Positions 7,654 through 31,467 of a stretch of 64,000 bases of DNA are shown here, piece after piece. Under the pieces are notes generated by a model. That model searched no databases and was not told where the DNA came from. It was given only the letters and a program-made list of their open reading frames with translations. The position numbers and the translations under genes were made by a program. This DNA comes from Nannocystaceae bacterium ST9 (GTDB taxonomy: Bacteria > Myxococcota_A > Polyangia > Nannocystales > Nannocystaceae). Positions within the stretch are counted from its first letter, which is position 1; every line of letters begins with the position of its first letter. Location of the stretch: positions 1,541,642 through 1,605,641 of the forward strand of contig JBLWFJ010000001.1 of the NCBI GenBank assembly GCA_048320885.1. Reading direction: 5' to 3'.

Positions 7654-7869
7654 CGGGCACGAGGGTACGCCAGATGGGGCCGCGAGGGCGATCTCGGCCG
7701 CTGCGCGGCGCTGGCGGGGGATCTGCTCGGGTTTGGCGGCGCGGCCCGGGCTCGCCGCGGGATCGAGCCCTCCGGTCCGGGGATGGACGAGGCGGGCCGG
7801 GACGACACCGGCAAATCCATACATTCGATTTCCATCGCAATGAAACCGTCGGATATCGACAATGGATCC

Positions 7870-7912
7870 GAATCGTGTGGGGTTGACAATCGAATCGGAT
7901 TCTCTACCGTCG
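7870..7912 (+). promoter_or_regulatory. Candidate sigma70-type promoter for the CHAT-McrB gene in a locally AT-richer divergent intergenic region
   Basis: gggTTGACAatcgaatcggattctcTACCGTcgag: consensus -35 and a weak -10 at about 17 bp spacing, roughly 20 nt upstream of the ATG at 7928. Short direct repeats (gacaatggatccgaatcg / gacaatcgaatcggattc). Confidence 0.25.
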
Positions 7913-7927
7913 AGGCTGGTGGCGAAC

Positions 7928-10900
7928 ATGCTTTCCGAATCCGAACTCGTCGCGCTCGTTCAAAAGCTCGAGGCCGATCCTCCGCAATGGGTGTCGGATT
8001 GGCGTCGGCGAGTCGCAAAATTCTTGGCCGAAGTCGCCAGCGCCGATCTCGAGACCCGGAGCAGCCGAGAATTCCAGCTTCGGCTCTGGAACGACAATCC
8101 GATCACCAGCGCCGGTCAGGGCGAGGTGGCGGTAGCGGTCGCGCTCGACGACGTCGAATTCCGCGAGTGGCTGGCCCGCGCCTCGTTCGACCCGCTCCCG
8201 CTGGACGCGGTCGAGAAGCGCAACGCGCTCGAACGGATCCTCGCCCGGATGTGGGAGCAATTCGAGGGCCAACGCAAGCCCTGGCTGAAGATGTTTCGGC
8301 TGCTCGCGGCGCTCTATCCCGATCATTTCACTTGCCTGAGTTCGACCACTCGACTGCACGAGTACGCCAGACTGCTGCTCGCCGGCCCACCCGCGCGGCC
8401 CATCGAGCAGCACCTCGCGCTCTGCGGGCAATTCGAGCGGCTGCTCGGACCGGCCAACGCCACGGCGCAGACCCGGGCGCAGCGAATGACGCTGCACTGG
8501 ATGGTCTACGAGCGGGTTCGTCAGGCGAACGCAGAATCGCCGATAGCGATCGTCGAGGACACCAACGAAGAACGGTTGATTCCGCTTCCAGCCGACCGCC
8601 GCCGCCGGGGGCTCATCGCGTTCAAGGGCTTGTCGTCGGCGCTTCGGCAGATCTTGGCCAAGGTCGGTGCCGGCATGACCGGCGCCGAGCTGCGCGAGGT
8701 CGTCCGTGCCGCGATCCCAGACTACAATGACTCGAGCCTGACCATCGTCATTCGATCATTGCAAACCGACCTCGGGGTCCTGCAAGTCGACGACGAACGT
8801 TTCGTATTGACGCCCTCGGGCCAATCTCTGTTCGAGAGCGAGGACTCCGACGCGCTGGCCGAGTGGCTGTTGACCCGCGTGCTCGGTGTCGACGTGGCGA
8901 TCGCGGCGCTCCGTCCACGGCCGCTGAGCAAACCCGAATGGCTGCGGGCGATCCAACGCGCTAACCCTCGCTGGACCAGCTCGTTCGCACCCAACGGGAT
9001 CACCAGCTGGCTGCTCGATCTCGGGGTCGTCGAGTCGATCGATGGCCAGTGCCAGCTGACGGAGCGCGGTCGGTCCTGGGCCGAGCTGATCCACTGGGTT
9101 CCGGTGACCCTCGACGTGGACGCACCGAACGAGACGCCCGAGTCCGAGCCGGAGCCCGAGGCCTTCTTCGACGAATCCGAGACCTTCGAACTGCACGTCG
9201 ACCTGCGCGCGGATGGCCGTGCGTGTCTGGTCCGGCTGCACGGAACCGAGAGCTGGTCGCAGGCGCCGTCGTTGCTGCCCTCGATCGCCGACGACAGCGA
9301 ATTCGTCGGTAAATCTCTGTTCGGCATTCTGTTCCACGAACAAAGCCTGCTCGGTCGCTATCGAGAGCTCCGCGCCGTCGCCCACGACCGGCACATGCCG
9401 CTGCGCGTGGTCTTGCACATGCACGCCGACGTTGTGAACCCCGATCGGCATTCGATCGCCGATCATTGCTGGGAGACACTACTCGATCCACAACATGGAC
9501 GCATCGCCAGCGATCTCGCGCTGCGCTTGGTGCGGGTCCGTGCGGGCCTTCATGCACTCGAAGTACCCCGAGCCCGGCCACGACTGCATGCATTGGTCGG
9601 ATTTGCTTGCCCTCGAGAATGTCAGGTCCTGGATTTCCACCACGAGCGCATCTCCTTCAAGAAGCTGACGCGCAGCTTGCAGGCCAGCACGTTGGTCGAT
9701 TTCAACTTTCATGAGCCGCTCGACATCGAGTCGCTACGGACGCACATCCGAGCCTCGGACTCCTTTCATTTCGGGGGCCACGGCGAAGTCGGTGGCCTGG
9801 TCCTCGAGGACTCCGGCAGTCACGCACAGGTGCTCGATAGCGAAGTGCTCCGAGCCATGCTGACACCACCGCTCCCCTGCTTTGTGGTTCTCAACGCGTG
9901 CCATGGCTCGGTCGCCGAAGATGCGCTCAGTGCAGCCCATGCGTTTCTCGAGCGTGGTGTGCATGCCGTCGTCGCCATGAACGGCGAGTTCGCGGACCGA
10001 GCTGCGGCTTCGTTCGTCGACGAACTCTACACGCGGCTGGTCGCGGGAAGCGATGTCGAGGCCGCCGTTCAGAGCGCGCGCTGGCGTCTGCTGTCTGAAC
10101 GAAGTGACTCATGGTTCATGCCGGTCCTGTGGACCCGAACCACCGCGAGCTTCGCGTTGGTCGATCGCAACCTCGCCGACGCCAACCCGGTCGTCCGCGA
10201 GCGCGTCGAGCAGCTCGATCGCTACGTCCGCGAGCATCGCCCACGCGTGGCGATCCGCGATCGCATCGACGCGAGCGGGATCGCGGCGGATCTCGACGCG
10301 AGTCGGCGAAGCGAGCTGGCCGAGTCGTTGCTGGAGCGCGTCGCGGTCGACGATCCCGATCGCTTCGAGGTCGAGCTCGACAAGCTGCTCGGCGACGCAT
10401 CGGTCACCCATCAGGTCGCGCAGCTGCGTCGCCGTGCGAGCAGCCCGTCCGGTGAGCTGCACGAGCTCGCCGAGGCGCTGCGCCGAGACGTGGTCCCTCC
10501 GCTCGGCGCGGCCGCGAGCTCGCTGCCCGCCTTGATCGCCGCGCTCGAGGCGATGACCCGCCCCGCCCCGACTCCCCCTGTCGAGCCCGCGCCGCCGCGC
10601 GAGTACGTCGACGTCGAGCGCCCGCTGACCCTCGAAGGCAGCCTCGACGCGATGATCCCGATCGCCAAGGCCGAGCTCGAGCTCGACGACGAGATCGTCC
10701 GCCGCTGCCTGATCCACCTGCTCGCCGGTCGCCACCTGGTGCTCGCCGGCCCGCCGGGCACCGGCAAGTCGACGCTCGCTCAGGGTCTCGCCAGGGCGTT
10801 CGGCTTCGCGGCGAAGATGACGACCGCGAACCCCGACTGGACCACCTACGACACGATCGGCGGGCTCGCGCCGATCCGCGTGCGCGACGAAGCCGGCCGC

Positions 10901-11797
10901 GGCCAAGTCGGCTACGAGTTTCAGCCCGGCCACGTGCTGCGGGCGATCGAGGCCAACTGGGTCGCCCGCGAGGGGGCCTGGCGGCGCGAGAAGGTGTGGT
11001 TGGTGATCGACGAGATGAACCGCGCGCCGCTCGATCAGGCGTTCGGCGCCCTGTTCACGGCGCTGGTCGAGCGAAGGCTCGAAGATCCGCGAATCGACGC
11101 CGCGATCCCCCTGCCCGCGGACTTTCGCCTGATCTGCACGGCCAACACCTCGGATCGTCGGCTGCTCTTCGAATTCTCCGAGGCGCTCAAGCGGCGCTTC
11201 GCCTTCGTCGAGATCCCGGCATTTCGTGGATCTCGCGGGCTCGGCGGGGGCGAGCGATTGTTGAGCCAGCTGCGCAAACGCGGGGTATGGGGCGACCACG
11301 ACATCGAGAACGATTTTAGCGAAACGCTCGCCAAACTCGATCCCATCGTCGATCGCCTGCGGATCCTGCATCCGCTCGGGCTCGCGCACGTGCTCGACGT
11401 CCTCATGTATGTCCTCGTCGCCCGCGCCCACGGTCGCGCCTTTAGCCGCCAATTGCTGACCGAGGCGTTGGTCGACAATCTGCTGCCGGTGCTCGAATCG
11501 CAACCCTCGGCGCGGCTCGACGCGCTCGCCAGCCTGCTCGCGGGTGGCATTCGCGGGTGGCTCGATCGCTGCGTTACCGAAATGCGAGCATATCGAGCCG
11601 ACCCCGTGGCCCTGCGCGTCGCGATCGAACTGGTGCGTGGTTCGAGCGAGTTCGACGAGCCGAAGGGCGAACTCGAGGCGTGGCTCGCCGCGCGAGTCGA
11701 GTCGCGCGGTCCGGAGCTCGACGAATGGCAGGCGCTCCCGTACGCCGCAGAGTTCACGCTCGCGCTGCAGCGCCTGGCCGCGGAGCGCAGTGCTTGA
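7928..11797 (+). CDS. Multidomain protein: N-terminal helical region + 2 winged-helix-like units + CHAT (caspase-like) protease domain + McrB-type AAA+ GTPase
   Basis: ORF 7862..11797. ATG at 7928 (MLSESELV) is preferred because a TTGACA promoter-like hexamer lies inside the 7862-7927 stretch. CHAT His/Cys dyad motifs FHFGGHGEV (about 9767) and VVLNACHGS (about 9890). McrB-like Walker A LVLAGPPGTGKST (about 10750), Walker B WLVIDEMNRAPLDQAFGALF (about 11000) and McrB-type FRLICTANTSDR. Confidence 0.8.
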   Translation: MLSESELVALVQKLEADPPQWVSDWRRRVAKFLAEVASADLETRSSREFQLRLWNDNPITSAGQGEVAVAVALDDVEFREWLARASFDPLPLDAVEKRNALERILARMWEQFEGQRKPWLKMFRLLAALYPDHFTCLSSTTRLHEYARLLLAGPPARPIEQHLALCGQFERLLGPANATAQTRAQRMTLHWMVYERVRQANAESPIAIVEDTNEERLIPLPADRRRRGLIAFKGLSSALRQILAKVGAGMTGAELREVVRAAIPDYNDSSLTIVIRSLQTDLGVLQVDDERFVLTPSGQSLFESEDSDALAEWLLTRVLGVDVAIAALRPRPLSKPEWLRAIQRANPRWTSSFAPNGITSWLLDLGVVESIDGQCQLTERGRSWAELIHWVPVTLDVDAPNETPESEPEPEAFFDESETFELHVDLRADGRACLVRLHGTESWSQAPSLLPSIADDSEFVGKSLFGILFHEQSLLGRYRELRAVAHDRHMPLRVVLHMHADVVNPDRHSIADHCWETLLDPQHGRIASDLALRLVRVRAGLHALEVPRARPRLHALVGFACPRECQVLDFHHERISFKKLTRSLQASTLVDFNFHEPLDIESLRTHIRASDSFHFGGHGEVGGLVLEDSGSHAQVLDSEVLRAMLTPPLPCFVVLNACHGSVAEDALSAAHAFLERGVHAVVAMNGEFADRAAASFVDELYTRLVAGSDVEAAVQSARWRLLSERSDSWFMPVLWTRTTASFALVDRNLADANPVVRERVEQLDRYVREHRPRVAIRDRIDASGIAADLDASRRSELAESLLERVAVDDPDRFEVELDKLLGDASVTHQVAQLRRRASSPSGELHELAEALRRDVVPPLGAAASSLPALIAALEAMTRPAPTPPVEPAPPREYVDVERPLTLEGSLDAMIPIAKAELELDDEIVRRCLIHLLAGRHLVLAGPPGTGKSTLAQGLARAFGFAAKMTTANPDWTTYDTIGGLAPIRVRDEAGRGQVGYEFQPGHVLRAIEANWVAREGAWRREKVWLVIDEMNRAPLDQAFGALFTALVERRLEDPRIDAAIPLPADFRLICTANTSDRRLLFEFSEALKRRFAFVEIPAFRGSRGLGGGERLLSQLRKRGVWGDHDIENDFSETLAKLDPIVDRLRILHPLGLAHVLDVLMYVLVARAHGRAFSRQLLTEALVDNLLPVLESQPSARLDALASLLAGGIRGWLDRCVTEMRAYRADPVALRVAIELVRGSSEFDEPKGELEAWLAARVESRGPELDEWQALPYAAEFTLALQRLAAERSA

Positions 11798-12971: not shown

Positions 12972-13622
12972 GTGAACTTCCATCCCTCGATGATCCTCAC
13001 CGTCTCGATGGCCCTCTTCGCGTGCACGCCCGATGGCGGGGGCGGTGACGAGGTCGGCAACACCGAGACTGCGGGCACCGACTCCACGTCCGGCGACTCC
13101 ACCTCCACCGACAGCACGTCCGGCGATTCGACCAGCGAGGGCACGTCCACCGACAGCAGCTCGGGCGACTCCACCGACTCCACCGACTCGACCTCGAGCG
13201 ATTCCACCGACTCCACCTCCGAGACCGGCGATCCCGATCCGATCGTGTCGACCTTCAGCTGCGAAGAGACCTCGGTGGTCGAGCCCTTCTTGCAGCTGAC
13301 CATCACCGGCGGCTTCACGGCCCAGAGCGAGCCTCGCAACCTGGTCGCCACCCACACGCTCGGCGGTGCGATCGAGTTCTCGGTGCCCATCCCGGCGCTC
13401 GTCGACCCGAACGACGCCAACTATGCCGACGTGGTCTACTGGGAGATGCAGCTCTCGATGGTCGGCTACGACGTGAACCTGCCCGACGACGGGACCGACG
13501 ACTCGCGCTACTTGTTCTTGCCGAGCGGGGCCGAGGGCGTGTCGACCTTCGACGCGTTCTATTATCGCGTCTACGGCGTGGGCGGCACCGGCCAGTTCGA
13601 CTTCACGTGCACGGCCGACTGA
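12972..13622 (+). CDS. Secreted lipoprotein with a Ser/Thr/Asp-rich linker
   Basis: Signal plus lipobox MALFAC, (STDS)n low-complexity linker, folded C-terminal domain. Confidence 0.7.
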   Translation: MNFHPSMILTVSMALFACTPDGGGGDEVGNTETAGTDSTSGDSTSTDSTSGDSTSEGTSTDSSSGDSTDSTDSTSSDSTDSTSETGDPDPIVSTFSCEETSVVEPFLQLTITGGFTAQSEPRNLVATHTLGGAIEFSVPIPALVDPNDANYADVVYWEMQLSMVGYDVNLPDDGTDDSRYLFLPSGAEGVSTFDAFYYRVYGVGGTGQFDFTCTAD

Positions 13623-17010: not shown

Positions 17011-18699
17011 TCAACGCAGGCCCGCGAACTCGCTCGCGTCCTTGTACTTCGGCACGACCCCGCTCTTCGCGATCACCCGCACGATCGCTACCACCAACTG
17101 CGAGTCCTGCAGCGCCCCCTCGAACCCCCACGCCTCGTCGAATTGATCCGCGGGCGTATGGTAGCGCTCCTTCACGCCGGCCTCGATCAGCTCGCCGGCC
17201 TCGTGCCCGCCCTCGCGCATGTCCATCCCGCCGTGAAAGTAGAGCGCCGGGATCCCGACCAGCGCGAAGGGGAAGTGATCCGAGCGATAGAAGCTGCCGG
17301 CCTCGGGCTTCGAGTCGCCGACGACCTCGCGGCCCTGCGCCTCGGCCTGCTCGATCAGCACGTCCTCGAGCGTGCTCTGGCCCCAACCGACGACCTCGAC
17401 CTGCTTGGTCTCGCCGTACACGTTCATGCTGTCGAGGTTGATCACGCCAACGACGTTCTTGTACGGGATGGTCGGGTCGGCGACCCACGAGCGCGAGCCG
17501 AGCAGGCCCTGCTCTTCGGCGGTGGTCGCCAAGAACACGACCGAGCGATCGAGCGGCTGACCGGCGTCGGCTTGCCGGGCGAGCTCGGCCGCGATCCCGA
17601 GCATGCTGGCGATCCCGCTGGCGTTGTCGATCGCGCCGTTGTGGATCCCGTCCTTGCCCTCGGCGATCAGCTTGGGATCGGTGCCGAGGTGGTCCCAGTG
17701 CGCGGTCAAGATCACGGTCTGCTCGGGCTCACTCGCGCCCGGCAGTCGGCCGAGCACGTTGACGTCGTCGACGCGGCGCTCGGTCGTGACGATCTTGCCC
17801 TGCATGCGCAGCCGGGTCTTGATCGGCTTGAAGTTGGGCTTCAGCGCGAGCTCGTGCCACTCTTTCAGGCTCTTGCCGCCGCGCGAGGCGATCGTCTCGG
17901 CCGTGTCGGCGGTGATCCAACCTTGGATCGGCAACGCGGGCGCGGGCTCGCCCTCGGGGCCGAGCACGGTGAAGCGCTCGTTCGAGAAGCTGGTCTGCGG
18001 CACGTTCCAGCCGTACGAGGCCGGGGCCTCTTCGTGGATGACCAGGCAGCCGGCGGCCCCGGCCGCGAGCGCGGCCTCGTACTTGTAGCTCCAGCGGCCG
18101 TAGTAGGTCATCGCCTTGCCGGCGAAGCGACCGTCGTCGACCGGCGGATCACCGACGAACACCACGGCGATCTTGCCCTTCATGTCGAGCTTGCCGTAGT
18201 CGTTCCACTTCTGCTCGGGCGCGGTCACGCCGTAGCCGAGGAACACCAGCTCGGCGTCGATGGTCTGCTCGGTCCCGGCGGCGAAGCTGCTGCCGACCCA
18301 AGTCTTGCCGAAGGGCATGCTCATCGCCTGGCCCTGGCCGCTGCCGATCTCGACGTGGGTCGCGGCCTGGTCGACGGTCACGCCGCGCATGCGGACGGTC
18401 TGCGTCCAGCCGCCGTCGTCACCGGCGGGCTCGAGACCGATCGCCTGCATGGTCGCGACGATGTGCTCGACGGTCTTGCGCGCGCCCTCGCTGCCGGGCA
18501 GGCGTCCGCCGAATTCGTCGGTCGAGAGCAGGCGGGTGTGGTCGCGCAAGAACTCGATCGTCAGCGCGGGCGTGCCCGGCTCGGCCGGCGGCAAGTCGGG
18601 GGTGGTGTGCTTCGGCTCGGGCGGCGGCGTGGTGGTCGGCTGCGAGGGGCAGGCGGCGAGCAGCAGCGCGAGCGCGAGGGGCATGAAGCGAGGCGGCAT
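17011..18699 (-). CDS. M28 family aminopeptidase lipoprotein (PA domain containing)
   Basis: Only the C-terminal roughly 563 aa of ORF 17011..21015 are real. Start MPPRFMPLALALLLAACPSQ (lipobox) at 18699. M28 motifs HWDHLG and TAEEQGLLGS. Confidence 0.8.
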   Translation of the reverse strand: MPPRFMPLALALLLAACPSQPTTTPPPEPKHTTPDLPPAEPGTPALTIEFLRDHTRLLSTDEFGGRLPGSEGARKTVEHIVATMQAIGLEPAGDDGGWTQTVRMRGVTVDQAATHVEIGSGQGQAMSMPFGKTWVGSSFAAGTEQTIDAELVFLGYGVTAPEQKWNDYGKLDMKGKIAVVFVGDPPVDDGRFAGKAMTYYGRWSYKYEAALAAGAAGCLVIHEEAPASYGWNVPQTSFSNERFTVLGPEGEPAPALPIQGWITADTAETIASRGGKSLKEWHELALKPNFKPIKTRLRMQGKIVTTERRVDDVNVLGRLPGASEPEQTVILTAHWDHLGTDPKLIAEGKDGIHNGAIDNASGIASMLGIAAELARQADAGQPLDRSVVFLATTAEEQGLLGSRSWVADPTIPYKNVVGVINLDSMNVYGETKQVEVVGWGQSTLEDVLIEQAEAQGREVVGDSKPEAGSFYRSDHFPFALVGIPALYFHGGMDMREGGHEAGELIEAGVKERYHTPADQFDEAWGFEGALQDSQLVVAIVRVIAKSGVVPKYKDASEFAGLR

Positions 18700-18764
18700 C
18701 GGCTGCGACGACACCCCGGATCGCGGGCGCGAGCAAGCCCCATCGCTCGTCGGGATCCAGCCGC

Positions 18765-20618
18765 TCAGCTCATGCCCGTGAGCAGGCCGTCGGCGGTCCA
18801 GCGTCGCAGCCATCGCGCGACCGCGGCGGGCGTCGCCGCGTGGCCGGCCAGGCCCTCGGGATCGCTGGCCCCACAGGCCGCCATGCACAGCCCGAGGAAG
18901 TCGGCCCCGTCCTGCAAGGCCAGCAGCGTGCGGGCTTCGTTGGCCGGCAGGTCGCGGTGGAACACGGTCAGGCCCGAGCGCCAGATCAACACGTGGCTGG
19001 GCTCGACCGAACCAGGCCCGGATGGGCCGTGGGCCGGGTGCATGCGGCGGGCCTCGTCGATCGATCGACCCTCGCGACACAGCGACCACATCGGCGAGAA
19101 GGGCCGCGAGCAGGCGCGCACGCGCATCGCCGCGCTCGCGCGCAGGCGCAGCTCGGGCCAGCGATCGAGCGGCACGGCCTCGAACGCCGAGAGCGAGAGC
19201 ATCGGCGCGTCGGGCAGGTCGAGCAGCTCGACGCGATCGAGCTCGATCCGGGCGACCTCGATCAGCTCGGGATCGTCGATGCCCTCGGGGTGATCGGCGA
19301 GGTAGTCGGGGAAGGGCCGCGAGTAGTGGCGCAGGTCGGCGTCGTGCGAGGGGTTGTGCAGCACGTAGTCGGTCAGCAGGTTGTGGAAGCGGACATGGCC
19401 GAGCATCCACGCGACGGTCGGGAAGTGCTCCTCGAGCACGCCGGCCAGCCGCCAGTAGTAGTCGTTGGCGTAGATGTCCATGCGATCGAGGGCCGAGAAG
19501 CCCTCGCTGCAATCGAACGCCTCTTCGAAGGTCTGGCGCAGCTCGGGCGTCGCGGTGGCCAGGAAGTCGGCGACGCCGGTCGGGAAGCGGATCGCCTGCC
19601 AGAACAGATCCAAGTCGGTCGCCAACGCGTATGCGCCGGTTCGGCGAGTGGCGGCGCTCGCCGAGGCCAGCGCGTCGAGGTCGACCCGCGGCCGCTCGGG
19701 TGTCGGGGCCGGGCTGCGCGGGCGAGCGCCGAGCACCTCGTCGGCGATCGCGGCGGCCTTGCGCTGCTCGTCGCGCAGCTCCTCCCAGGCCGGGACGTCC
19801 TCGTCCCACTCGATCAGCGACGAGACCGGACCCCAGCGACGCAGCGCGTTGCGATAGAGCTCCCAGACCTCGTCGGGCACCGGGCCGAGGTGCGAGTCGA
19901 ATTTGTAGAGCCCGCGATCGGTGTGGTTGGCGAGGTGGAATTGCCAGACGCGCTCGCCCGGGATCGCGTCGAGGTAGTCGTCGGGATCCCAGCCATGGTT
20001 GCGCGCGCTGACGATCACGTTGTTGAGATCGAGCAGCAGCAGGCAGTCGGCCCGCTCGGCCAGCTGGGCCAGAAACTCCCACTCGCTCAGCTCGCTCGAT
20101 CGAAAGCCGACGTAGCTCGACACGTTCTCGATCAGGATCCGTCGACCGAGGATGTCCTGCACGCGAGCGACCCGCTCGATCACCGAGTCGAGCGCCTCTT
20201 CGGTGTAGGGCAGCGGCAGCAGGGCGTGGCTGTGCTCGCCTCGCCGAGTCGCCCAGCACAGGTGATCGGACACCCAGGCCGGCTCGATCCGATCGATCAG
20301 CGCCTGCAGGCGATCGAGGTAGCGACGATCGGGGGCGTCGAGCGAGCCGACCCCGAGCCCGACCCCGTGCAGCACGACCGGGAGGTCGCGGCGGATCGCG
20401 TCGAGCGTGGCGAGCGGGCGGCCGCCCTCGCCGAAGAAGTTCTCGCTGATCGCCTCGACCCAGTCGACGTCGAGGCCCTGCACGAGCGCGCGGGCGAAGT
20501 GGCGCGTACGCAGGCCGACCCCGTGACCGAGGAAGGGTCGCGCCCCCACGGCCGAGCCCGCAGGGCGCCCACGGCCGAAGGAAGCACCGCCGCGGTCGAG
20601 CTCGCGGTCTTCGGGCAT
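18765..20618 (-). CDS. Fused MNIO (DUF692, MbnB/BufB-like) - DUF2063 (BufC/HvfC-like) RiPP maturase
   Basis: N-terminal TIM-barrel DUF692 motifs ([31 protein letters not shown]). C-terminal half resembles DUF2063. Probable start MPEDRELD at 20618 (ORF to 20702). Confidence 0.75.
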
Positions 20619-20707
20619 CGGCCGGACGATACGCGATTCTCGAGGGCGACTGCACCGTCCCGCGTAACCTCGCGCTCGGGTCCGGCAATCTGCCCCGGAC
20701 AACCGCC

Positions 20708-21064
20708 ATGTCCAAGACCAGCACGCAGTTCATGTCCGCATTCGCCCTCTCGGCCGCCGCCCTCTTCCTCGGTGGGTGCAAGGAAAAGCCCGCCACGGTC
20801 GACCCCGAGTCCAATATCGACCCCGAAGGCGGGTCGACCGCGACCGGCGGCTCGACGGCGACGACCGACCCCGAGCTCGACCCGACCGAGCAGGTCAAGT
20901 GCTTCGGCATCAACGCGTGCTCGGGCCAGAGCGCCTGCAACGTCAACAAGCCCGAGCTGGGCATCGAGCACGCCTGCGCAGGCGAGAACGCGTGCGCAGG
21001 CAAGGGGTGGATCAAGGTGACCCGGCAGGAGTGCAGCGAGAAGAAGGGCGAGGAGCTGGGTTAG
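20708..21064 (+). CDS. DUF2282/bufferin-like Cys-rich precursor lipoprotein
   Basis: Signal plus lipobox AALFLGGC. Acidic Thr/Gly linker. Core [17 protein letters not shown]...[27 protein letters not shown] has 6 Cys in the DUF2282/BufA pattern. Transcribed divergently, 90 bp from the MNIO gene. Confidence 0.7.
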
Positions 21065-21228
21065 GCAGGTCCATCCGAACGCGACCAAACAAGGCTTGCT
21101 GGAGGCAGATCTCGTGCGGTCGATCACGAAGTAGAAAGTCTTCCTGAAGGACGAAGCCCCTCGCTCGGCTGAAGGGCGGCCCAAAACGGTCGAGTCGAGC
21201 CGGCCCGCCCGGCGGTACACTCGCTAAG

Positions 21229-22905
21229 ATGTCGGAGGCGAACGGTGAACAGGTGACGGACATCGTCTTCCTGGCCACAGCTTGGGGTCCCCGCAGTGGG
21301 GGTATCAACGCGTTCAACATCGATCTGTGCACTGCCCTCGCTGGTCTCGCGCGAAGTGAGCAGGGCCGCGCTTTGCGTGTCGCCTGCATCGTCCCCTCGG
21401 CACCTTGGGGCAACGACGAGCGCCTCTTGGATGGTGCCCTTGTGATTCCGCTTGGGCATTCCCCCGAGCTCACCGAGCTTCCAGTCGCCCACACGGCCGA
21501 GGTCATCGCGCAGTTGGACCGGCATGGCCTCGCCGGGTCAGTAATCGTCGGCCACGACCTTCATACTGGTCCTGTGGCGTTGGCAGTGCGCGATGCCCTG
21601 CGTGCTCGTTCGATCATGGGCAGCCGCGCAGCGATCGTGGTGCACACCGACCCAGCGGCCTACAAGGGCTTCGAGGGTGGGTCTGACGAACGAACACAGG
21701 TCAAGGTCAACGAACAGCGCGAGATCGTCCGCGGTGCCGATCTCGTGTTTGCGGTTGGACCTCGGTTGGCTAACGTCGCGCGCGATCTGCTGCGAGGTTT
21801 GAGCACACACCCGGTCGAGTTAATCCCCGGACTTGCACCGATCGAACCGATCCAGGAGCCTTCCATGCGGTTCCATGCGATCACATTTGGGCGCCTCGAG
21901 CCGCGCGCAGACCGGGTCAAGCAAGGTCGACTTGCGCTTGCTGGCTTCGCCAATTTGGTCGGCCCTCGGGCCACTGACCTCGGCCACGACCCGGTCTTTC
22001 GCCTCGTAGGGGTAGAGGAGAGGGAGGCCAGCCAGTTCGCTACGCTCGCTTCCGAACAAGCTGGGCGACCAATCATGGTCTATGCGTTGCCTTTCAACGA
22101 TGATCGAACCCATTTGTGGAAGCAGCTCTCCGAGCACTCCGCTTCGCTGATGCTGTCTCTACACGAGGGCTTTGGCTTGACTGGTTGGGAGGCGGTCGCA
22201 GCTGGGGTCCCGCTGGTGCTCTCTACAAACACCGGACTCTACGATCACCTCGAGAGTCACGATGCCTTGGGGCGGAAGGCAACGGGATGCGTCTACCCTG
22301 TGACAATCCAGGGCTCACTGAACGGTGATTTCGACCAGCGAGATATCGAGTTGATCGGGGCGGCGTTGGCCGATGTGGCGCGGAACCCCACCAAGGCCAA
22401 GAAAGGGGCGCTCGATCTCCGGCGTATGTGCCTTGATGCTGGCTTCACATGGGCATCGACAGCATACGAGTTTGCGGAGGGATGTGGGTTGAGGCTTGGG
22501 AATCCACGTGGCGTGCCAACTCACGAGACGGATCGAGCACCGTATCAGCACCGCGACTCCACGAGCGAGGGGAACGACGCACTCGAGGAGCCTCAGACTG
22601 CGATCGAGGCTACGTCGCTGTACTCTCGTTCGACCGCCACAACGTCCCAGTTGCCCATGCCCCTCATCCATTGCCTGGCCGAGAACTACCCCGACGTTAC
22701 CACTGCGCGGGAGCTCTGGCGCCGTGCCGGCGGATCGGCGCGCGAGGTGGAGAATCTCAGTCGACCAGTCGATCTCTGGCAGCGATTGTGGCAACTAAGC
22801 GTGGCGGGCGCCCCCGTGCGACCCGTTGCTTTACTCCGTGCTGCGCTGGAAGATTTGCCGAACAATGAAATCCTCTTGACAGCTCTCCAGGAAGTGATTA
22901 GTTAA
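21229..22905 (+). CDS. GT4-like glycosyltransferase-fold protein with a C-terminal helical effector-associated-like module
   Basis: GT-B motifs (LHEGFGLTGWEAVAAGVPLVLS). The C-terminal roughly 70 aa (ARELWRRAGGSAREVENLSRPVDLWQRLW...LEDLPNNEILLTALQEV) is shared with the C-terminus of 25999..28405. Confidence 0.7.
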   Translation: MSEANGEQVTDIVFLATAWGPRSGGINAFNIDLCTALAGLARSEQGRALRVACIVPSAPWGNDERLLDGALVIPLGHSPELTELPVAHTAEVIAQLDRHGLAGSVIVGHDLHTGPVALAVRDALRARSIMGSRAAIVVHTDPAAYKGFEGGSDERTQVKVNEQREIVRGADLVFAVGPRLANVARDLLRGLSTHPVELIPGLAPIEPIQEPSMRFHAITFGRLEPRADRVKQGRLALAGFANLVGPRATDLGHDPVFRLVGVEEREASQFATLASEQAGRPIMVYALPFNDDRTHLWKQLSEHSASLMLSLHEGFGLTGWEAVAAGVPLVLSTNTGLYDHLESHDALGRKATGCVYPVTIQGSLNGDFDQRDIELIGAALADVARNPTKAKKGALDLRRMCLDAGFTWASTAYEFAEGCGLRLGNPRGVPTHETDRAPYQHRDSTSEGNDALEEPQTAIEATSLYSRSTATTSQLPMPLIHCLAENYPDVTTARELWRRAGGSAREVENLSRPVDLWQRLWQLSVAGAPVRPVALLRAALEDLPNNEILLTALQEVIS

Positions 22906-22917
22906 GCAGATGCGAAT

Positions 22918-24204
22918 ATGACCGACTTTCTACTGAAGCTCGTCAATCGAGGTTTTGTTCCAAAGCTGGAAGGCGACGATCTCAAGCTTGCGAAAATCCA
23001 GAAAGCGAGCAACGCACTCGCAGCGGAGTTCGCCCGGTCTCCACGCCGTCTGATCCGCGCGATACTGGCGGGCATCGAACCAGATGTATCAGATAAGGAT
23101 CCCGAGATCGTCGCGGCCGAGCAGGCTGTGCTTCAACAGTGGGGCACGATGCGGACGGTTCACACCGATTCACCGACCAATCTGCTGCGCGCGGTGCTAC
23201 TCGACGCGTGCTTTCAGGCTGCACAGGGTCCCCGGGCCGCCGTGGTGTGGCTCACAATCGTCGATCAGTTGCCCTTTGTGAGGCTGGGCGCGGAGGAGAC
23301 GACGGTGCGCAACCAACTGGATACGTTGGCCATTTCGGTTGAGAATCAGGCGCTCGCCGGGCTTGGCGGAGAGAAGCCAAAACAGGTTGGCTCGATCAAT
23401 ATCGGCCGGCCTAATCTAGCGGGAGCGCAAAATCTCACCGGCGGGGACATGGCTGCGCTGAGCGAGCGGGCCAAATCTGCCTTCCCGTTCACCCAACAAA
23501 GTGGGAATTGGCAACTTCTGGCCGACGCCGTCAACGTTTGGATGAACGCGTTCCCTGACCAACTGAGCGGCATGCTCGCCGCGCTACACAGGGGAATCGT
23601 TGAGAGCGTACAACTTGATCGTTCTCAACTCATCACGGCATTCGCCGACGCAACCGCTATCATCGAGAAAACCGTCAACGACCAGAGGGAATGGCTGTTT
23701 GCGGCACAGGCCGATTTTGAGGCTTCCTCCCGTATTCGACTGGAGGCGCTGTGGTGGGCGGAGGCTCTCTATTCTCCCTCGCTACAGATCAGCTACCGAC
23801 AAATCCCGTCGACATTAGCGACTTTCGTCATGGCGTTTGATCTCGCCGCGGTGGTAGGGGTCACGGCGCCCGCATCGGTCGGCTTCCTGCTCGCAGAGAC
23901 GATAGCGAAGCTGCCTTCCGCCGGGTTCGATGAAGCCCGACCGTTGGGGACCATCCTTGACGGATTGCGCGAGCATCGAGGCCGGCTTCCCGCCGCGTGG
24001 CTCGACCAACTCGAGTCTCCGACCGAGGGCAGCTTGAGCATTCGAGATCTGGCGGTATTGTCCCTCCGCGGTGACAGCATCCGTTACGAAAACGCCAAGA
24101 ATGAGTTCAGCTCGCGCTTCGAGAAAACCATGAACTTACCGGATTTCGGACATGCGATTCATCGCCAGGAACGGGCATGTCGGATCGTTCAGGAGTTGAA
24201 ATGA
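22918..24204 (+). CDS. All-helical hypothetical protein (GTPase-associated, GASH-like?)
   Basis: 428 aa, predicted helical, no known catalytic motif. 12-nt gap from the upstream gene and overlaps the downstream GTPase. Confidence 0.6.
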   Translation: MTDFLLKLVNRGFVPKLEGDDLKLAKIQKASNALAAEFARSPRRLIRAILAGIEPDVSDKDPEIVAAEQAVLQQWGTMRTVHTDSPTNLLRAVLLDACFQAAQGPRAAVVWLTIVDQLPFVRLGAEETTVRNQLDTLAISVENQALAGLGGEKPKQVGSINIGRPNLAGAQNLTGGDMAALSERAKSAFPFTQQSGNWQLLADAVNVWMNAFPDQLSGMLAALHRGIVESVQLDRSQLITAFADATAIIEKTVNDQREWLFAAQADFEASSRIRLEALWWAEALYSPSLQISYRQIPSTLATFVMAFDLAAVVGVTAPASVGFLLAETIAKLPSAGFDEARPLGTILDGLREHRGRLPAAWLDQLESPTEGSLSIRDLAVLSLRGDSIRYENAKNEFSSRFEKTMNLPDFGHAIHRQERACRIVQELK

Positions 24205-25160
24205 GCACCTTGAAGTGCAGTGAGGCCCGTTGTTACGTTCACGAGGGCCAGGGTTGCAGCCTGGGTAATCCAATTGACCAGTGCCCAAATCGGGCTGTGC
24301 CCGAGCACCGCGACGGTTCGTCTCCGCCGACCACGTCTGAAGACAGTGGGCGGGTGTGTTGGTCCGGGGCAGCCCTGGGCACGGACGACATCGCGTTGCT
24401 CACGATGCGTGCACGCTCGATCATCATTGGCGTTGTTGGGGCACACAACGCCGGCAAAACAACGCTCCTAACCGGCACCTACGTGATGGCCCAGCGCGGC
24501 GAACAAATCGCCAACGCACGTTTTGCTGGCTCGCGGAGCCTCGAGGCCTGGGAGTCTCTCGCCGCGTGGACGCGATTCGACGACGCCGCCCGCTTGCCAT
24601 CCTTTCCGCCCCACACCCCGCGGGGCTTTGGTCGAACGCCGGGCCTCTTGCATGTAGCACTCCGGGGCGCCAACGACGAACTGCGCGACGTCCTGCTCAC
24701 CGACGCCCCAGGTGAGTGGTTCATGCGCTGGGCGATGCAGCGAGACAGCCCCGAGTGTGAAGGAGCGCGTTGGACAGCCGAGAACGCGGATGGATTCCTG
24801 ATCGTCGCGGATTGCATGAATCTGTCAGGTGAGGAGCGAGGCATTGCTCGTGAGTCTACGCGCTCGCTCATCGACCGGATGGGCGATGTCGTCGACGGGC
24901 GACCGGTGACATTTGTGTGGGCCAAGGCTGAGCAGCATCCACCCACGGGTATTCGAAAGGCGATTGAGAATACTCTCGCACAACGGATCCCACATGCCAC
25001 CCAGGTCGAGAGCCGTCTTGATCAACCCGCCACACTGTGCTCGGCCGTTGGCGGAATCGTCAAGGCATGCTGGTGGCCTCCCTGCGGTAAGGTGAGCCGG
25101 GTGCCAGTCCTGTCATCGACACCTTTCGAAGCATTCCGGGGGCATCGTGACCAAGCCTGA
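24177..25160 (+). CDS. P-loop GTPase with N-terminal Cys-cluster (zinc-ribbon-like)
   Basis: Walker A IIGVVGAHNAGKTTLL, DxxG LLTDAPGEW, N-terminal CSEARC...CSLGNPIDQC. Confidence 0.7.
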   Translation: MSDRSGVEMSTLKCSEARCYVHEGQGCSLGNPIDQCPNRAVPEHRDGSSPPTTSEDSGRVCWSGAALGTDDIALLTMRARSIIIGVVGAHNAGKTTLLTGTYVMAQRGEQIANARFAGSRSLEAWESLAAWTRFDDAARLPSFPPHTPRGFGRTPGLLHVALRGANDELRDVLLTDAPGEWFMRWAMQRDSPECEGARWTAENADGFLIVADCMNLSGEERGIARESTRSLIDRMGDVVDGRPVTFVWAKAEQHPPTGIRKAIENTLAQRIPHATQVESRLDQPATLCSAVGGIVKACWWPPCGKVSRVPVLSSTPFEAFRGHRDQA

Positions 25161-26003
25161 ACTTGTGTTGTTGGGCGGCCACGACAGTGGGAAAACCCAC
25201 TACGCGGCACAGCTCTACGGACGATTGCGTCGCCGCCCAGGCGAGCTTCGTCTGCGGGAGTTGGCGGCACGCCTGCGGATCTCAGTGCCCTTGAGGAAGT
25301 CCTCATGTGTTTGGGAAGGGGTCGTGCGGCAGGGCATACCGCGACCAGTACATGGGCGGAGTTGAAACTGCCACTGGTCGACCGAATCGGGCGCGAACTC
25401 GACGTGACCTGGCCAGACTACGGTGGTGAACAGGTCCGGCAAATGTCACGGCTTCGCATGATTCCGCGCGAGTGGGTGGAGCGACTGACGCGGGCGGATG
25501 GCTGGGCTGTGCTAATCCGCCTGCAGAGCGAGAAACAATACTCGGACTCGCTCGAACACCTGACGGAGCGGCCCCATGCAAACGAACATTCGGATGAAGG
25601 GTCCGCCGACACCTTCGAATGGGACGCCAACGCGAAATGGGTTGAACTTCTGCAGATGCTACTGCACGTAGCGGGGCACGGGACCGTGCGGAGGCTGCTT
25701 CGCCCACGTTTGATCGTGTTGCTGTCGTGCTACGACGAAGTCGCTGTCGCCACCGACGAGACCCCCGCGGCAGTGCTGGAGCGCTGGCTCCCCTTATTGT
25801 CCGCCTTCATCAACTCGAACTGGTCTGCTGGCGCGGCAACTGTGTGGGGTATTTCCCCACTTGGAAAACCGCTTACGCCGGATTCCCGCGACACGGACTT
25901 CATCGATGACGGCCCCGAACTTCAGGGGTGGATCGTTCAACCCGACGGGAGTAAGTGCGACGATCTGAGTCTCCCGCTCGCGTGGTTGCTGGAGGCGACG
26001 TGA
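25147..26003 (+). pseudogene. Second, paralogous P-loop GTPase interrupted by a frameshift (ORFs 25147..25365 and 25305..26003)
   Basis: Walker A LLGGHDSGKTHY is in the first ORF; DxxG (TWPDYGGEQ) and the rest of the paralog are in a second frame overlapping 25305-25365. The alignment is parallel to GTPase 1 (DAPGEWFMRW vs DYGGEQVRQM). Confidence 0.55.
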
Positions 26004-28405
26004 TTGAACCATTGCGCGCACGTTACGGCGACGTCAACCGAGGACACAACATCCTCGAGTGGACCGGCCAGGGCAATCTACCATCAGTTTTGTTGGGACT
26101 CACTGACAAACCCACTGGAACCCGGGGCCCTGATGACCGGTGGTGGCCTTCCGTTGGGTGCGGCGCGTTCGAGGGCTGGTGGGCGCTTTGGTGGACCATT
26201 CCCGACCGCGGTGCGCAGCGGGCTGGTATGGTGGAGAGTGAGGTTGCGCTGTGGCCCGTGGCGAGCATTGGAGAGGTGGCAGATCTCTTGCCAGTACTGG
26301 CGACGATGGCTGGCCGAGACTCCATCACCATGCCGAGCGACGATTACCTCGGTGCGATTGTCGAGGCTCTGGTTCGCGGCGGTGAACCCCCGGTGCTCGC
26401 GGATCTCGATGTGTGGCCCGGGGTGCTAGCCGCGCTCTGGCTCAGGTTGTCTCCGACTGACCGGCAAACGTTCTCCGCCCGCGTCGCCATGTTACCACCG
26501 CAGGGGGGCGACTCAGTCATGCCGCCAAGTCTGTTCGTGACAAGGAGTGACCGGACCCTTCAATGGCCTTGCGAGCGGGTCATCACCCAACACACCACGC
26601 CTGCCGAACTATCCCGCGCCGCCCGATGGTTTCTCGATCGCGAGGACCCAACCATCGCTGACCTACTCGACGGGTGTCCAGATCTCGAATGGCAGATGAA
26701 TCGCCTGCCAACTTTGGCACGCGCCGCTGATGAAATCGATCAGATGAATGCGACTTCTGATCCTGTGTACGCCCTGTACGCCCTACGCACGCTCATAGCT
26801 ATCGCACCGAATCCCCTTCACGCGGTTGAACCGAAACGCGCGGCTCTCCGGTTCCTCGGCGCAGGGCTCCCAACTGCAAACCTCCAATTCATTCTCGCAT
26901 TGCGAAATATCAAGGAGTCCGCCGTGCAGACGCTCGGAGATCTGAATGATGGTGTCCGCGCCTGGGTCGATCGGGGGACACCGTCGTTGAACGCAGCAGA
27001 CGCTGCGCGCCTTCTGAGTGAACTCGATCCCGATCGGGCCGAACCCTGGTGGACGGAAACGGTGTCGAATGGCCTTGGCGCTGCATTGCGACTACCGAAG
27101 GGGACTTGGGCAAAGGCCGTGCTGTGCTGGCTCGCGCTGCCGGCCTGCGCCACCGCCCTCCGCGAACTACTACCGACGACAGCGGACGTCGAGGACGCAC
27201 TATTCATGGCGGTAAGCGGCCTTGATTGGACGTCGGAAGCTTCCCCTTTGCTGTTGTCCGAGGTCCGTCGCCGCGGGTGGTCGCGCCTTCATGCCCGGGT
27301 CGCTATCGCGACACAGCCTGCCCGTGAAGCGATTAGGATTCAGCGAGCCTCGCAACTCGACGAGGATCCCGGCCTCGAGGTGATTGTTGAACTCGTGGCG
27401 GGTCAGGATTTGGTGCAAGAGGCCGTTGACAATCCCGATACGCGCTTTGTGGGGCTCGTCGCTCGACGTACCGTTCGTCAACCGGAACTGCTCGCCCCCC
27501 TCGATCCCCAGAACCCTGCCTGGCGCGGGCTGTGGGAGGCACACATCAAGGCCGGCGGTGAGCCCTGGCCTCCACGCGCAGATAGGTCGTTCGTATCGAC
27601 CTGCCTGCTCGACGCAACACTCGATGGTGAAGCGCCAGAATCTCTGTTGCGAAGTTTGGCGAAGGATATGGGACCCTTCGTATTCGGCTATAAGCGGCGC
27701 GCAGCACTTTGGGATGTCCTGCCCGGAAAAGTGAAAGACTCGCTGCTGGCCGCGGCCGCGGCCGTCTTACTCGAACAGGTTGACGCTGGAATCACGATCT
27801 CGCCCGAACCTCCCTTAGCAGCAGCCGCCTTCTTGCGAGCAGCGAATATGCAGCCCCGCCCAACTATTGTGGCCGCACTTCTGAAATGGGACGTGGACGT
27901 GACCGAACAACAGATGATCCACTGGTTGCACGAAGTGACGCCCGAACGTTGGAAGTCTGTCGCGCTACAGATCGGTGAAGAGATCTCGCGTCGGAGGTGG
28001 AGTGAGGCGGCGGCAGTGCTCGCGGATCAGTGGGCCTCCCGCAGCTTCACCAGGCCGGGTGCAATCGCCTGTGCTGAGCTCCTGCCCCGCTGGCGACGAT
28101 GGCGGCTGGGGCTGGACGCCGAGGAGGCTTCACGTTCGACTCTGATCGAGCGGGTGGTAGAGCTGGGAGCGGAGCATGCACCCGATGAGCTTGATATGCT
28201 CTGGGAGCGGGCAGGCGGGAAGCGAAAAGTCCTTCCTAGTGGTACACCGGAAATTCGCTGGCGCGAGGCCGCACGCGCTGCTGAGGGCGGCGCCCTCAAG
28301 AACGGCCTCGTGGAGTTGGTGGAGCAACTGCTCAGTAAGTTACCCTACAACCGCAATCTTCAGGAGCTTGCAGAAGTCCTGAGGAATAACGGACGTCGGC
28401 GATAA
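25999..28405 (+). CDS. Large hypothetical protein (about 802 aa) with W-rich N-terminal domain and C-terminal effector-associated-like module
   Basis: The GTG at 25999 overlaps the upstream TGA. The C-terminus DELDMLWERAGGKRKV...LLSKLPYNRNLQELAEVL is alignable to the C-terminus of 21229..22905. Confidence 0.7.
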
Positions 28406-28549
28406 CGAGTTTAGTGAACAGGAGAAAGGGTTGGCACTCCTCGGCTCGATCAGCGGCTTGGTGATCCCCACCCGATCTTGGCTTCGGGTGGGAGTCTCGT
28501 GCCGGCTTCGCCGGCACGAGCCCCACCAACCGAACGACCGCCCTCCAGC

Positions 28550-30484
28550 TCAGGTCCGAAGAACCCAAGCCTTCAAGCGCGCCGAGTAGGTCACCGCGTT
28601 GGCCCCACTCGCGCCGATCACCTGCCACACCGGCGGCGTGCCGGCGGTGAAGGGGATCGTGTACTCGGTCATGCTCGGCCGGTTGCTGACGAACGCGTGC
28701 AGGTCGCGGGACGGCGAGCTCCCCGAGAGATCATTGACACGCAAGATGGTCTGATTCGCGGTCGCGCCGGTGCCGGAGATCATCAGCTCGAGCACCGCCC
28801 CGATCGCGTTCGAGGGGACCCGCGAGGGGCCGATCGCGATCGGAGCCATCGGGGCGTTGGCCGTGCCGGACAAGAAGATCTCGCGCTCGTCCCCGAGCAG
28901 CAATTCGACGCCCTCGGCATAGCTGCGATAGCTGGCCGCGTACTCGCCCTCGACCACCCACACCGAGTCGACGAGCACGCGCTGCCCGTCGAGCTCGGCG
29001 ACGTCGCCCGCGTAGGGGTACACGCGAACCCGCAGGCGGCGAGGCCCGACCACGCCGCCGGCCAGGCCGTCGAAGCGACCGGTGAGCGAGCGGACTCGCC
29101 ACGAGGTCGGCCCGACGCCGGTGTCCGAGAAGAACCCGAGCCGGGTGCCGCTCGCGACGTCGATCAGATCGATCCGAAACGCGAAGATGTCGGAGTCCGA
29201 GTCGAGGATCTGGTAGCGAACGCCGACGGTGACGCTGCGGACGCCCGAGTCGACGACGAAGTCCTGGTAGACGTGCTCGCCGGTCGAGGCGTTGACGGTC
29301 AGCATGGTCGACGCGCCGCCGGTCACGAAGGGCGTCTGGTGGACCGCGACGAAGGGCGGCGGGACCGAGTTCGACCAGAACAGCGCGCCGCGGCTCATGT
29401 CCGAGTTCTTGAGCCGATTGACGTGCGCGGCCGTGGCCCCGCAGATCGCCCCGCCGTAGGCGTTGACGGCGTAGGCGTTGCCCGACTGCGGAGCCTGAGG
29501 CACGTCGACGACCCCGCGGGTCTCGGGCGGCAGCTCGAGGTAGGTCGGCGTCCAGTTCCACTCGCCGAAGGGCACGCCGGGCTCCGAGAAGAGCGCGCCT
29601 TCGAAGGTCAGGTTCATCGTCGACTCGTCGACGTAGACCGAGCGCCGGCGGGTGCTGCCCTCCTCGAAGTTGCCGGGCTCGAAGTAGCAGCCCTGCACGG
29701 TCACGCCCATCGAGCCGGTGATGCTCAGGCAGAGCGGCGAGGCCTCGACGTTGACGCCGGAGATCACCAGGCCCTGGGCGCCCTGCGGGACGCCGACGTT
29801 GCTGGGCGTGCCGACGATGTGAATGCCGACCCCCTCCTCGCGCGCGCCCTTGGGATCCTTCTCGGTGTAGAGCACCAGGCTGTAGAACACCCGGCCGTTC
29901 TGCAGCACGCAGGCGTTGGTGTGATCGCCGACGTAGATGCCGGTCTGGCAGCTGAACACGTCGAAGCGCTCGACGTAGTTGTAGCCGCTGTAGGGGGTGG
30001 TGCCCGCGCTGAGCTGGATGCCGATCCCGAAGTTGCCGATCACCACGTCGCGCACGCGGTTGAACAGCGACTGGTCGAAGCTGATCCCGATCCCTTGCGG
30101 CGGGGTGTTGAAGTCGTTGCCGACCGGGCCCTCGAGCCGAAAGTGATGCAGCGTGCTGCGGGCGAGCAGGCCGAAGGGCACGGTGTTGGGCGCGAACAAA
30201 AACGCGGGCACCGACAGATCGGTCGGCTTGTAGACCAGGTTGGTCTGGCCCTCCTGGCCCTGGCCGAAGATCTCGGTGCCGACCGGCAGCCAGGGGTTGC
30301 CCTGGTACATGATCTGCTCGAAGTACCAGTCGCCGGCCGGGATCGAGATCCGCCGCGCGCCCGAGTCGAACGCGGCGCGGAACGCCTGGGCGTTCTGCAC
30401 GGTCGCCAGCGGGTTGTTGGGGATGGCCCCGAAGTCCGAGAGATTCGCGATGCGTTCGGTACGAAGGATTCGAGTCGCCATCAT
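28550..30484 (-). CDS. Right-handed beta-helix (pectate-lyase-fold) protein, tailspike-like, no signal peptide
   Basis: Start MMATRIL at 30484 (the ORF to 30724 is an R-rich extension). N-terminus ANLSDFGAIPNNPLATVQNAQAFRAAFDSGARRISIPAGDWYF is typical of the Pectate_lyase_3/tailspike family. Gly/Val/Thr-rich beta-helix body. Confidence 0.7.
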   Translation of the reverse strand: MMATRILRTERIANLSDFGAIPNNPLATVQNAQAFRAAFDSGARRISIPAGDWYFEQIMYQGNPWLPVGTEIFGQGQEGQTNLVYKPTDLSVPAFLFAPNTVPFGLLARSTLHHFRLEGPVGNDFNTPPQGIGISFDQSLFNRVRDVVIGNFGIGIQLSAGTTPYSGYNYVERFDVFSCQTGIYVGDHTNACVLQNGRVFYSLVLYTEKDPKGAREEGVGIHIVGTPSNVGVPQGAQGLVISGVNVEASPLCLSITGSMGVTVQGCYFEPGNFEEGSTRRRSVYVDESTMNLTFEGALFSEPGVPFGEWNWTPTYLELPPETRGVVDVPQAPQSGNAYAVNAYGGAICGATAAHVNRLKNSDMSRGALFWSNSVPPPFVAVHQTPFVTGGASTMLTVNASTGEHVYQDFVVDSGVRSVTVGVRYQILDSDSDIFAFRIDLIDVASGTRLGFFSDTGVGPTSWRVRSLTGRFDGLAGGVVGPRRLRVRVYPYAGDVAELDGQRVLVDSVWVVEGEYAASYRSYAEGVELLLGDEREIFLSGTANAPMAPIAIGPSRVPSNAIGAVLELMISGTGATANQTILRVNDLSGSSPSRDLHAFVSNRPSMTEYTIPFTAGTPPVWQVIGASGANAVTYSARLKAWVLRT

Positions 30485-30858: not shown

Positions 30859-30872
30859 GATGTCTGGTCCTC

Positions 30873-31322: not shown

Positions 31323-31467
31323 GTTCCCTTCGCGACCTCGAATCGTCGCAAATGCGCCGACTCTCGGTTCGAACCAGGGATTCCCGCGTTCGCTCGAATC
31401 GATCGATCTTCGCGAAGAAAGACGCAAAGCGATCAGGTCGCGATCCCGCCGCGAGGCGAGCGGCCGT

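Follow-up and report, generated by a model that had tools for sequence, protein, structure and literature searches.

Modified peptides that buffer copper, the bufferins, have been recognised only recently and form a very large family. We analysed a 64,000-nucleotide window of contig JBLWFJ010000001.1 from Nannocystaceae bacterium ST9 (G+C content about 0.69), in which an initial annotation had described a bufferin/MNIO-type locus for a peptide made by the ribosome and modified after translation (RiPP). The three genes it named lie where it had placed them, and its interpretation as a locus of this type was upheld. A small precursor with six core cysteines and a lipoprotein signal is encoded on the strand opposite to its maturase, in which the MNIO enzyme and its partner protein form a single chain (Table 1). 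We read this locus as a bufferin-2-type RiPP metallophore system of a Nannocystaceae-like myxobacterium and put the probability of this reading at about 0.8. Such a system would be useful as a natural variant of something known; it is not new in kind and would not surprise a specialist. For the domain matches on which the reading is built, chance is excluded by their E-values.

Table 1. Coordinates of the features discussed in the text, counted from the first letter of the window
Feature	Position	Strand	Basis or remark
bufA2-like precursor gene, 118 aa + stop	20708-21064	+	NF050166 match, no PF10048 match
Predicted lipoprotein signal peptide, residues 1-24, lipobox L-G-G-C24, Lys at +2	20708-20779	+	PROSITE-type lipobox rule
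Hypervariable Thr/Gly/Asp/Pro-rich linker, residues 25-61	20780-20890	+	low column identity, low pLDDT
Six-Cys bufferin core, residues 62-118 (C65, C71, C77, C90, C96, C109)	20891-21061	+	invariant Cys
Divergent intergenic region, 89 bp, between both start codons	20619-20707	none	sequence read
Single-chain BufB-BufC maturase gene, 617 aa + stop	18765-20618	-	PF05114 + PF09836, NF050167
MNIO (DUF692) TIM-barrel domain, residues ~30-300	19719-20531	-	PF05114
Variable inter-domain linker, residues ~301-345	19584-19718	-	length and sequence vary among homologues
PME-type-1 partner domain (DUF2063 + RRE-like), residues ~346-617	18768-19583	-	PF09836
M28 aminopeptidase lipoprotein, 562 aa	17011-18699	-	PF04389; probably outside the system
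GT4-conflict+EAD1	21229-22905		within insertion
GASH	22918-24204		within insertion
DO-GTPase2	24177-25160		within insertion
DO-GTPase1	to 26003		within insertion
GAP1-N1...EAD1	25955-28405		within insertion

The maturase joins a complete BufB to a complete BufC

The open reading frame (ORF) of the maturase spans 18765-20702 on the minus strand, and its homologues favour the ATG at 20618 (MPEDREL) as start codon, which yields 617 residues. The proposed fusion of DUF692 and DUF2063 was borne out by Pfam, with matches to PF05114 (E=3e-99) and PF09836 (E=2.8e-15, 56.8 bits) in the N- and C-terminal halves, respectively. With 346.1 bits the protein passed the cut-off of the NCBIfam model NF050167 (MNIO_BufB, 310 bits), while the models for HvfB, ApyH, MbnB and ChrH all stayed below their own cut-offs.

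The positions of the MNIO iron ligands are intact: H84, H119, E164, D197, N200, H228, D241, H243 and E270 are invariant in 24 homologues of 43-83% identity. These nine residues line up with the H / DH / E / D..N / H positions in both MbnB and 3bww, a DUF692 structure from H. somnus. In the MbnB numbering, H192 was checked on the alignment, and H210 is a mutated position in the title of entry 7tcw. In HvfB, the site-3 residues N175, D242 and H244 are essential (bioRxiv 10.64898/2026.07.17.739211), and their equivalents in the maturase are N200, D241 and H243. The AlphaFold model (pLDDT 90.6, pTM 0.87) displays a DUF692 TIM-barrel fold in one half and a DUF2063 domain followed by an RRE-type domain in the other. 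Both components are thus present in full in the maturase, BufB as well as its PME-type-1 partner BufC.

The precursor as a divergent, lipoprotein-type BufA2-like protein

The initial annotation had recognised a DUF2282 cysteine signature in the precursor. This assignment did not hold, since PF10048 (DUF2282) gave no match at E<=10, either with the whole precursor or with its core alone, and the core comprises six cysteines instead of the four of DUF2282 (Buf1). Pfam returned nothing beyond a sub-threshold match to DUF7640. Among the NCBIfam models there was one match, to NF050166 of the sister family BufA2 ('BufA2 family periplasmic bufferin-type metallophore', E=4e-14), which with 52.6 bits narrowly missed the equivalog cut-off of 60.

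A search of 5.8 billion proteins yielded 101 relatives of the precursor, of which only the weakest carries a Pfam domain, namely PF10048. The cysteine spacing 6-6-13-6-13 recurs in 95 of 100 relatives, and C65, C71, C77, C90, C96 and C109 align with canonical Buf2 precursors that belong to loci with separate bufB and bufC genes in other phyla. The family's cysteine motif (vKC.GiN.C.Gqs.C ... C.G.N.C.GKGW ... C) is present, and across 52 precursor sequences the six cysteines are invariant together with G67, N69, G73, S75, G92, N94, K99, G100 and W101. The AlphaFold model, which is of moderate confidence only (pLDDT 62.5) and too uncertain for a fold search, assigns C65 to the first beta strand and C109 to a short helix, in agreement with the bufferin disulfide described between these elements.

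The lipoprotein signal (LFLGGC), the Thr/Gly/Asp linker and the six cysteines of the initial annotation were all confirmed. At the N-terminus a positive n-region and a hydrophobic h-region precede the lipobox LFLGG-C24, and the PROSITE-type lipoprotein rule is satisfied here as well as in 94 of 100 relatives, 74 of which carry Lys at position +2. Judged by its cysteine motif and by a profile match just below the cut-off, the precursor is a divergent BufA2 (Buf_6/12Cys) and not a DUF2282 protein, and it is consistently a predicted lipoprotein. The small ORFs of the Myxococcota clade described below lack a Pfam domain, and most of those with a source name are called 'hypothetical protein'; they can be named BufA2-like precursors despite their position on the opposite strand.

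Conservation is distributed unevenly along the precursor. Among the 52 sequences, the h-region and lipobox (residues 9-24; 20735-20779) reach a column identity of 0.89 and a mean pairwise identity of 0.82. The cysteine-rich core stays below these values (0.82 and 0.73), and the linker is far more variable (0.33 and 0.21). Ordinary signal peptides drift. The pattern fits a suggestion in the literature that the signal peptide belongs to what the BufB-BufC complex recognises, and it hints that the signal peptide may double as a recognition leader. Such a leader role is proposed by analogy with Buf1 and Buf2 of Caulobacter and with HvfBC of Haemophilus influenzae.

Lipidation and membrane location of the precursor are likewise predicted by analogy. 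Another MNIO RiPP was shown experimentally in 2026 to be lipidated via signal peptidase II (SPII), in a study that lists bufferins among predicted RiPP-lipoproteins (PMC13056109), and about 16% of Buf2 precursors have been reported to carry lipoprotein signals, again as a prediction (PMC12452194). Since the inner-membrane lipoproteins of Myxococcus xanthus show an enrichment of Lys at +2 (8/12, PMC3222651), the inner membrane is our best guess for the location.

Single-chain maturases are common and appear to have arisen more than once

The best 120 maturase homologues, without exception, measure 450-650 residues and contain both Pfam domains. Named fused homologues come from Enhygromyxa salina, Pseudenhygromyxa, Nannocystaceae and Polyangiaceae, and one of them is called 'MNIO family bufferin maturase' by NCBI. 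When 1.84 billion proteins clustered at 50% identity were searched, both domains were found, in the order MNIO then partner, in 108 of the best 150 cluster representatives. Thus, the fusion of MNIO and partner is not rare and comprises at least 108 clusters at this identity level.

We then compared 171 sequences, that is, 170 loci (L numbers) and the window, which were classed with purpose-built hidden Markov models; the loci of close relatives were gathered by exact-protein look-ups, whereas the matches listed by scans of genome and metagenome contigs were mostly distant canonical systems. Fused maturases were found in 26 of them and separate bufB and bufC genes in 139, while 6 have no visible partner. 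In a neighbour-joining tree of the MNIO domains, the window falls into a Myxococcota clade of 14 sequences. The same tree contains a separate, mainly proteobacterial and mostly fused clade, with Hydrogenophaga palleronii (L050) among its members, and another five sequences that are fused. This topology suggests that the fusion arose more than once.

Of the 14 members of the Myxococcota clade, 10 have a fused maturase, and L007, L008, L009 and L012 have separate bufB and bufC genes. In all four of the latter, the bufB match stops at the domain boundary, where the fused forms have their inter-domain linker, and bufC lies in another frame: in L007 and L009 it starts 5-6 nt past bufB, and in L008 and L012 it overlaps the bufB end. 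A frameshift artefact was considered for these members and rejected, since the break coincides with the domain boundary; they are real gene pairs. The four split members are basal in the clade and already possess an opposite-strand lipoprotein precursor. On this sequence comparison the fusion is the derived state within the clade, and the strand flip appears to predate it.

Neither the MNIO literature that we searched nor the supplements of PMC12452194 contain a description of natural BufB-BufC fusions, an absence which is not proof. As far as we searched, the fused maturase is abundant in databases and undescribed in the literature.

Precursor and maturase form a conserved pair

The canonical layout, with the precursor upstream of bufB on the same strand, is found in 121 of the 139 loci with separate genes. 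In the window the order bufA-bufB-bufC is not found: the precursor is divergent, and bufB and bufC form one ORF. This feature defines the layout, not family membership. The opposite strand of the precursor was described correctly before, with a gap of 89 bp in place of the 90 bp given. The traits that the initial annotation took as non-canonical are less unusual than it suggests, given that lipoprotein signals and operons without DoxX have been published and that fusions are as widespread as described above.

The supposed co-conservation of the two genes was confirmed as well. In 13 of the 13 loci of the Myxococcota clade that show both genes, the precursor adjoins the maturase on the opposite strand, divergently in 11 and convergently in 2 (L006, L012). 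Enhygromyxa salina (L003) shares the arrangement of the window. Since the surroundings of the pair vary among loci (GST, Peptidase_M50, esterase, histidine kinase, lipoxygenase), it is precursor plus maturase that represents the conserved unit.

Some variation exists around this unit. L004 has an extra ORF of about 167 residues without a Pfam family between precursor and maturase, on the precursor strand (9391-9894, minus). Gaps of about 700-790 nt separate the two genes in L007-L009, and the extra ORF is absent from the window. The genes downstream of bufC in canonical loci do not form one family from which a DoxX model could be derived; their largest cluster consists of Buf1-type precursors of a second operon. 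In the gammaproteobacterial loci L033, L034 and L037 we observed two MNIO/partner pairs in tandem: after a Buf2-type operon come a precursor of DUF2282 type (Buf1) and another bufB and bufC.

Proposed mechanism and points against it

By analogy with Caulobacter Buf1/Buf2, HvfBC and MbnBC, from which we infer the chemistry, the modified cysteines and the binding of copper, the system may work as follows. The 118-residue precursor would be synthesised in the cytoplasm and bound by the C-terminal DUF2063/RRE half of the maturase, probably via its conserved signal peptide and core. This half would then hand the precursor over to the N-terminal MNIO iron site, where C71, C77, C90 and C96 would be oxidised to 5-thiooxazoles (-4 Da each). 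In Caulobacter Buf2, the central cysteines carry -4.03 Da, while CysI and CysVI are unmodified and free for a disulfide (PMC11626156). After export of the modified protein by Sec, Cys24 would be diacylglycerylated, signal peptidase II would cleave, and a disulfide C65-C109 would form. The expected product is a small copper-binding domain on a flexible tether of about 37 residues, likely in the inner membrane, which would buffer periplasmic copper.

A wider reading combines these elements: natural single-chain MNIO-PME1 maturases would be common and would have arisen more than once, and in the present clade they would be combined with an opposite-strand precursor and an obligately lipid-anchored bufferin whose signal peptide is more constrained than its core. 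We propose this combination tentatively and rate it as somewhat less probable than its opposite. If the signal peptide is constrained because the fused RRE half recognises it, it would be a Sec/SPII signal and a RiPP leader at once, and the clade would offer a one-enzyme, one-substrate model of how MNIO systems prevent premature export.

Several observations weigh against a bufferin-2-type system. The precursor stays below the equivalog cut-off of NF050166 (52.6 versus 60 bits), its CysIII-CysIV loop comprises 12 residues, the usual CKG lysines are missing, and the confidence in its model is only moderate (pLDDT 62.5, with values below 55 in the linker). In addition, precursor and maturase need separate promoters, and a promoter scan of the intergenic region gave no match to the sigma-70 consensus. 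Finally, the window genes scanned include no gene for copper resistance, none for a sigma/anti-sigma pair and none for DoxX.

The shortfall in the NF050166 score accompanies the longer CysIII-CysIV loop. Other precursors of the clade with a long loop also stay below 60 bits (E. salina 55.2, L008 52.8), and those with a shorter loop pass (L004 68.7, L006 67.8, L012 74.2). Since copper-resistance, sigma/anti-sigma and DoxX genes are missing among the genes scanned, the link to copper comes from homology alone. DoxX or sigma/anti-sigma genes, for which the initial annotation had pointed further away from the locus, are not to be expected in a Buf2 system: the Caulobacter buf2 operon has no DoxX, buf2 operons normally lack both kinds of gene (PMC11626156, PMC12452194), and a survey found sigma/anti-sigma-type regulators only with Buf1 (PMC12452194).

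With respect to regulation, the precursor strand carries the sequence GTAACC at 20664-20669, 44 nt upstream of the start codon, followed by N16-CAAT. The Caulobacter sigmaF motif GTAACC-N16-CGAA (PMC3511200) has exactly this hexamer as its -35 element, so that the motif is only half matched in the window; GTAACC is kept only in the closest relatives. Across 139 Buf2-type loci, GTAACC occurs upstream of the precursor 26 times in sense and 4 times in antisense orientation. The full motif was found in 7 loci (L050, L089-L091, L107, L116, L149), mostly of the second, proteobacterial fused clade. We regard sigmaF-type control of the precursor as a weak lead.

Alternative explanations

The initial annotation had also pointed to the M28 aminopeptidase next to the maturase. 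The gene is indeed there and encodes such an enzyme (PF04389, 2.4e-44; the match to a PA domain is below the cut-off, 21.7 versus 23.9 bits); nothing ties it to the system. As a third component, the peptidase might trim the linker after export and thereby free a soluble periplasmic or extracellular bufferin. It starts 65 bp past the maturase stop codon on the same strand, and its own lipobox (LLLAA-C) would place it in the same compartment as the precursor. Its adjacency to the maturase is retained in L001 and L002, and in L166 it is found one gene off. However, M28 enzymes are exopeptidases, which counts against trimming of a linker, and published bufferin gene clusters contain no protease. 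In addition, only relatives with about 80% DNA identity to the window carry M28 nearby, a level that matches plain synteny, and the stop codon of M28 is precisely where the alignment with L001 breaks off. Esterase, histidine kinase or unknown genes occupy the position in the other loci of the clade. We therefore rejected M28 as a conserved partner. It is probably a bystander, retained in none but the closest relatives; its adjacency looks like inherited synteny, with no sign of function, and a role in processing the bufferin is improbable.

A different question is whether the modified lipoprotein serves copper at all. It might handle another metal, respond to redox or hypochlorite stress, or deliver metal to a partner protein, which would suit the missing copper genes near the locus, among the window genes scanned, and the divergence of the core from characterised Buf2 (the long loop, and CSG/CAG in place of CKG). 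MerC-bufferin fusions and 'gold-induced' gig operons have also been noted in the literature (PMC12452194). We consider such a role unlikely, albeit the least unlikely of the alternatives, as the four thiooxazole-forming cysteine positions are conserved in the precursor and the characterised thiooxazole peptides from MNIO-PME1 pairs all bind copper (PMC11626156, PMC13097082, PMC12538549). Even less probable, and in our view very hard to sustain, is that the opposite-strand ORF encodes a cysteine-rich lipoprotein that is no substrate, while the fused enzyme acts on another peptide or on none. The separate transcription units and the score below the BufA2 equivalog cut-off would allow for it. Yet the two genes stay together in every clade locus that shows both while all other surroundings change, the ORF has homologues among BufA2 precursors whose genes share an operon with bufB and bufC, and no other small cysteine-rich ORF was found nearby.

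Comparison with known systems

The closest characterised counterpart of the proposed bufferin-2-type system is bufferin 2 of Caulobacter vibrioides (BufA2/BufB2/BufC2, CCNA_03001-02999; PMC11626156). It likewise comprises a six-cysteine precursor with an N-terminal export signal and an MNIO enzyme with a DUF2063/RRE partner, lacks DoxX, and leads us to expect four thiooxazoles and a CysI-CysVI disulfide. In contrast to Caulobacter, BufB and BufC form one 617-residue chain here, and the precursor is encoded 89 bp away on the opposite strand. It carries a lipoprotein (SPII) signal and a 37-residue linker and has a longer CysIII-CysIV loop, and no SigF/NrsF regulator was found.

The domain order of the maturase, with MNIO N-terminal and PME1 C-terminal, equals that of an engineered HvfBC fusion from Haemophilus influenzae. 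This fusion was built because HvfB and HvfC bind weakly, and it was more active than the co-expressed pair; the same preprint lists only MovX and ChrH as MNIO enzymes with extra domains (bioRxiv 10.64898/2026.07.17.739211). The HvfBC fusion is man-made and linkerless and acts on oxazolin, an EGKCG-repeat protein, whereas the present enzyme is a natural one of the BufB family, with about 45 residues of linker. Since weak partner binding hampers work on MNIO enzymes, natural single-chain enzymes are useful for structural and spectroscopic studies.

The lipobox of the precursor is shared with lipidated MNIO RiPPs (DybA/DybH, ChrH subfamily; PMC13056109) and with a subset of Buf2 lipoproteins (PMC12452194). 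In the former, cytoplasmic modification by the MNIO enzyme is followed by the SPII pathway, as proposed for the present precursor. DybH differs in that it forms a macrocycle and a hydantoin on a CPxCGxG motif and carries a different extra domain. The lipoprotein bufferins are predicted only, and their maturases have been described as separate proteins (PMC12452194). One fused maturase paired with a lipoprotein-type substrate could serve as a test case for them. MovX is an MNIO enzyme with a fused winged-helix/RRE domain; in contrast to the maturase described here, it has the winged helix-turn-helix part only and no full DUF2063-RRE partner. MbnBC and TglHI are two-chain heterodimers, and their precursors have no signal peptides.

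Other features of the window

In comparison with the close relatives L001 and L167, the window contains an insertion of 10.4 kb (21065-31475), which starts one base past the precursor stop codon. Its first 7 kb have a lower G+C content (0.60-0.62) and hold five co-directional genes of a GTPase-associated conflict system (Table 1). The ORFs at 28478-31400 gave no family match, and no flanking repeats longer than 10 nt were found.

On the other side of the locus, a 1317-residue protein that combines a CHAT protease domain with an AAA_5 ATPase domain of dynein type is encoded at 7844-11797 (plus strand), adjoined by the gene for an SMC/AAA_23-like ATPase (5767-7959, minus strand). A lipoprotein-like protein of 216 residues with Ser/Thr/Asp-rich 'DSTS' repeats follows at 12972-13622 (plus strand), for which neither Pfam nor NCBIfam gave a match. 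Within 41339-44634 and 50922-64000 we detected two PhoX alkaline-phosphatase paralogues in tandem as well as a cluster for type VI secretion. The latter comprises Hcp, two sheath genes that are VipB/TssC-like, and an ImpA/VasJ protein in which ImpA_N occurs in three stretches.

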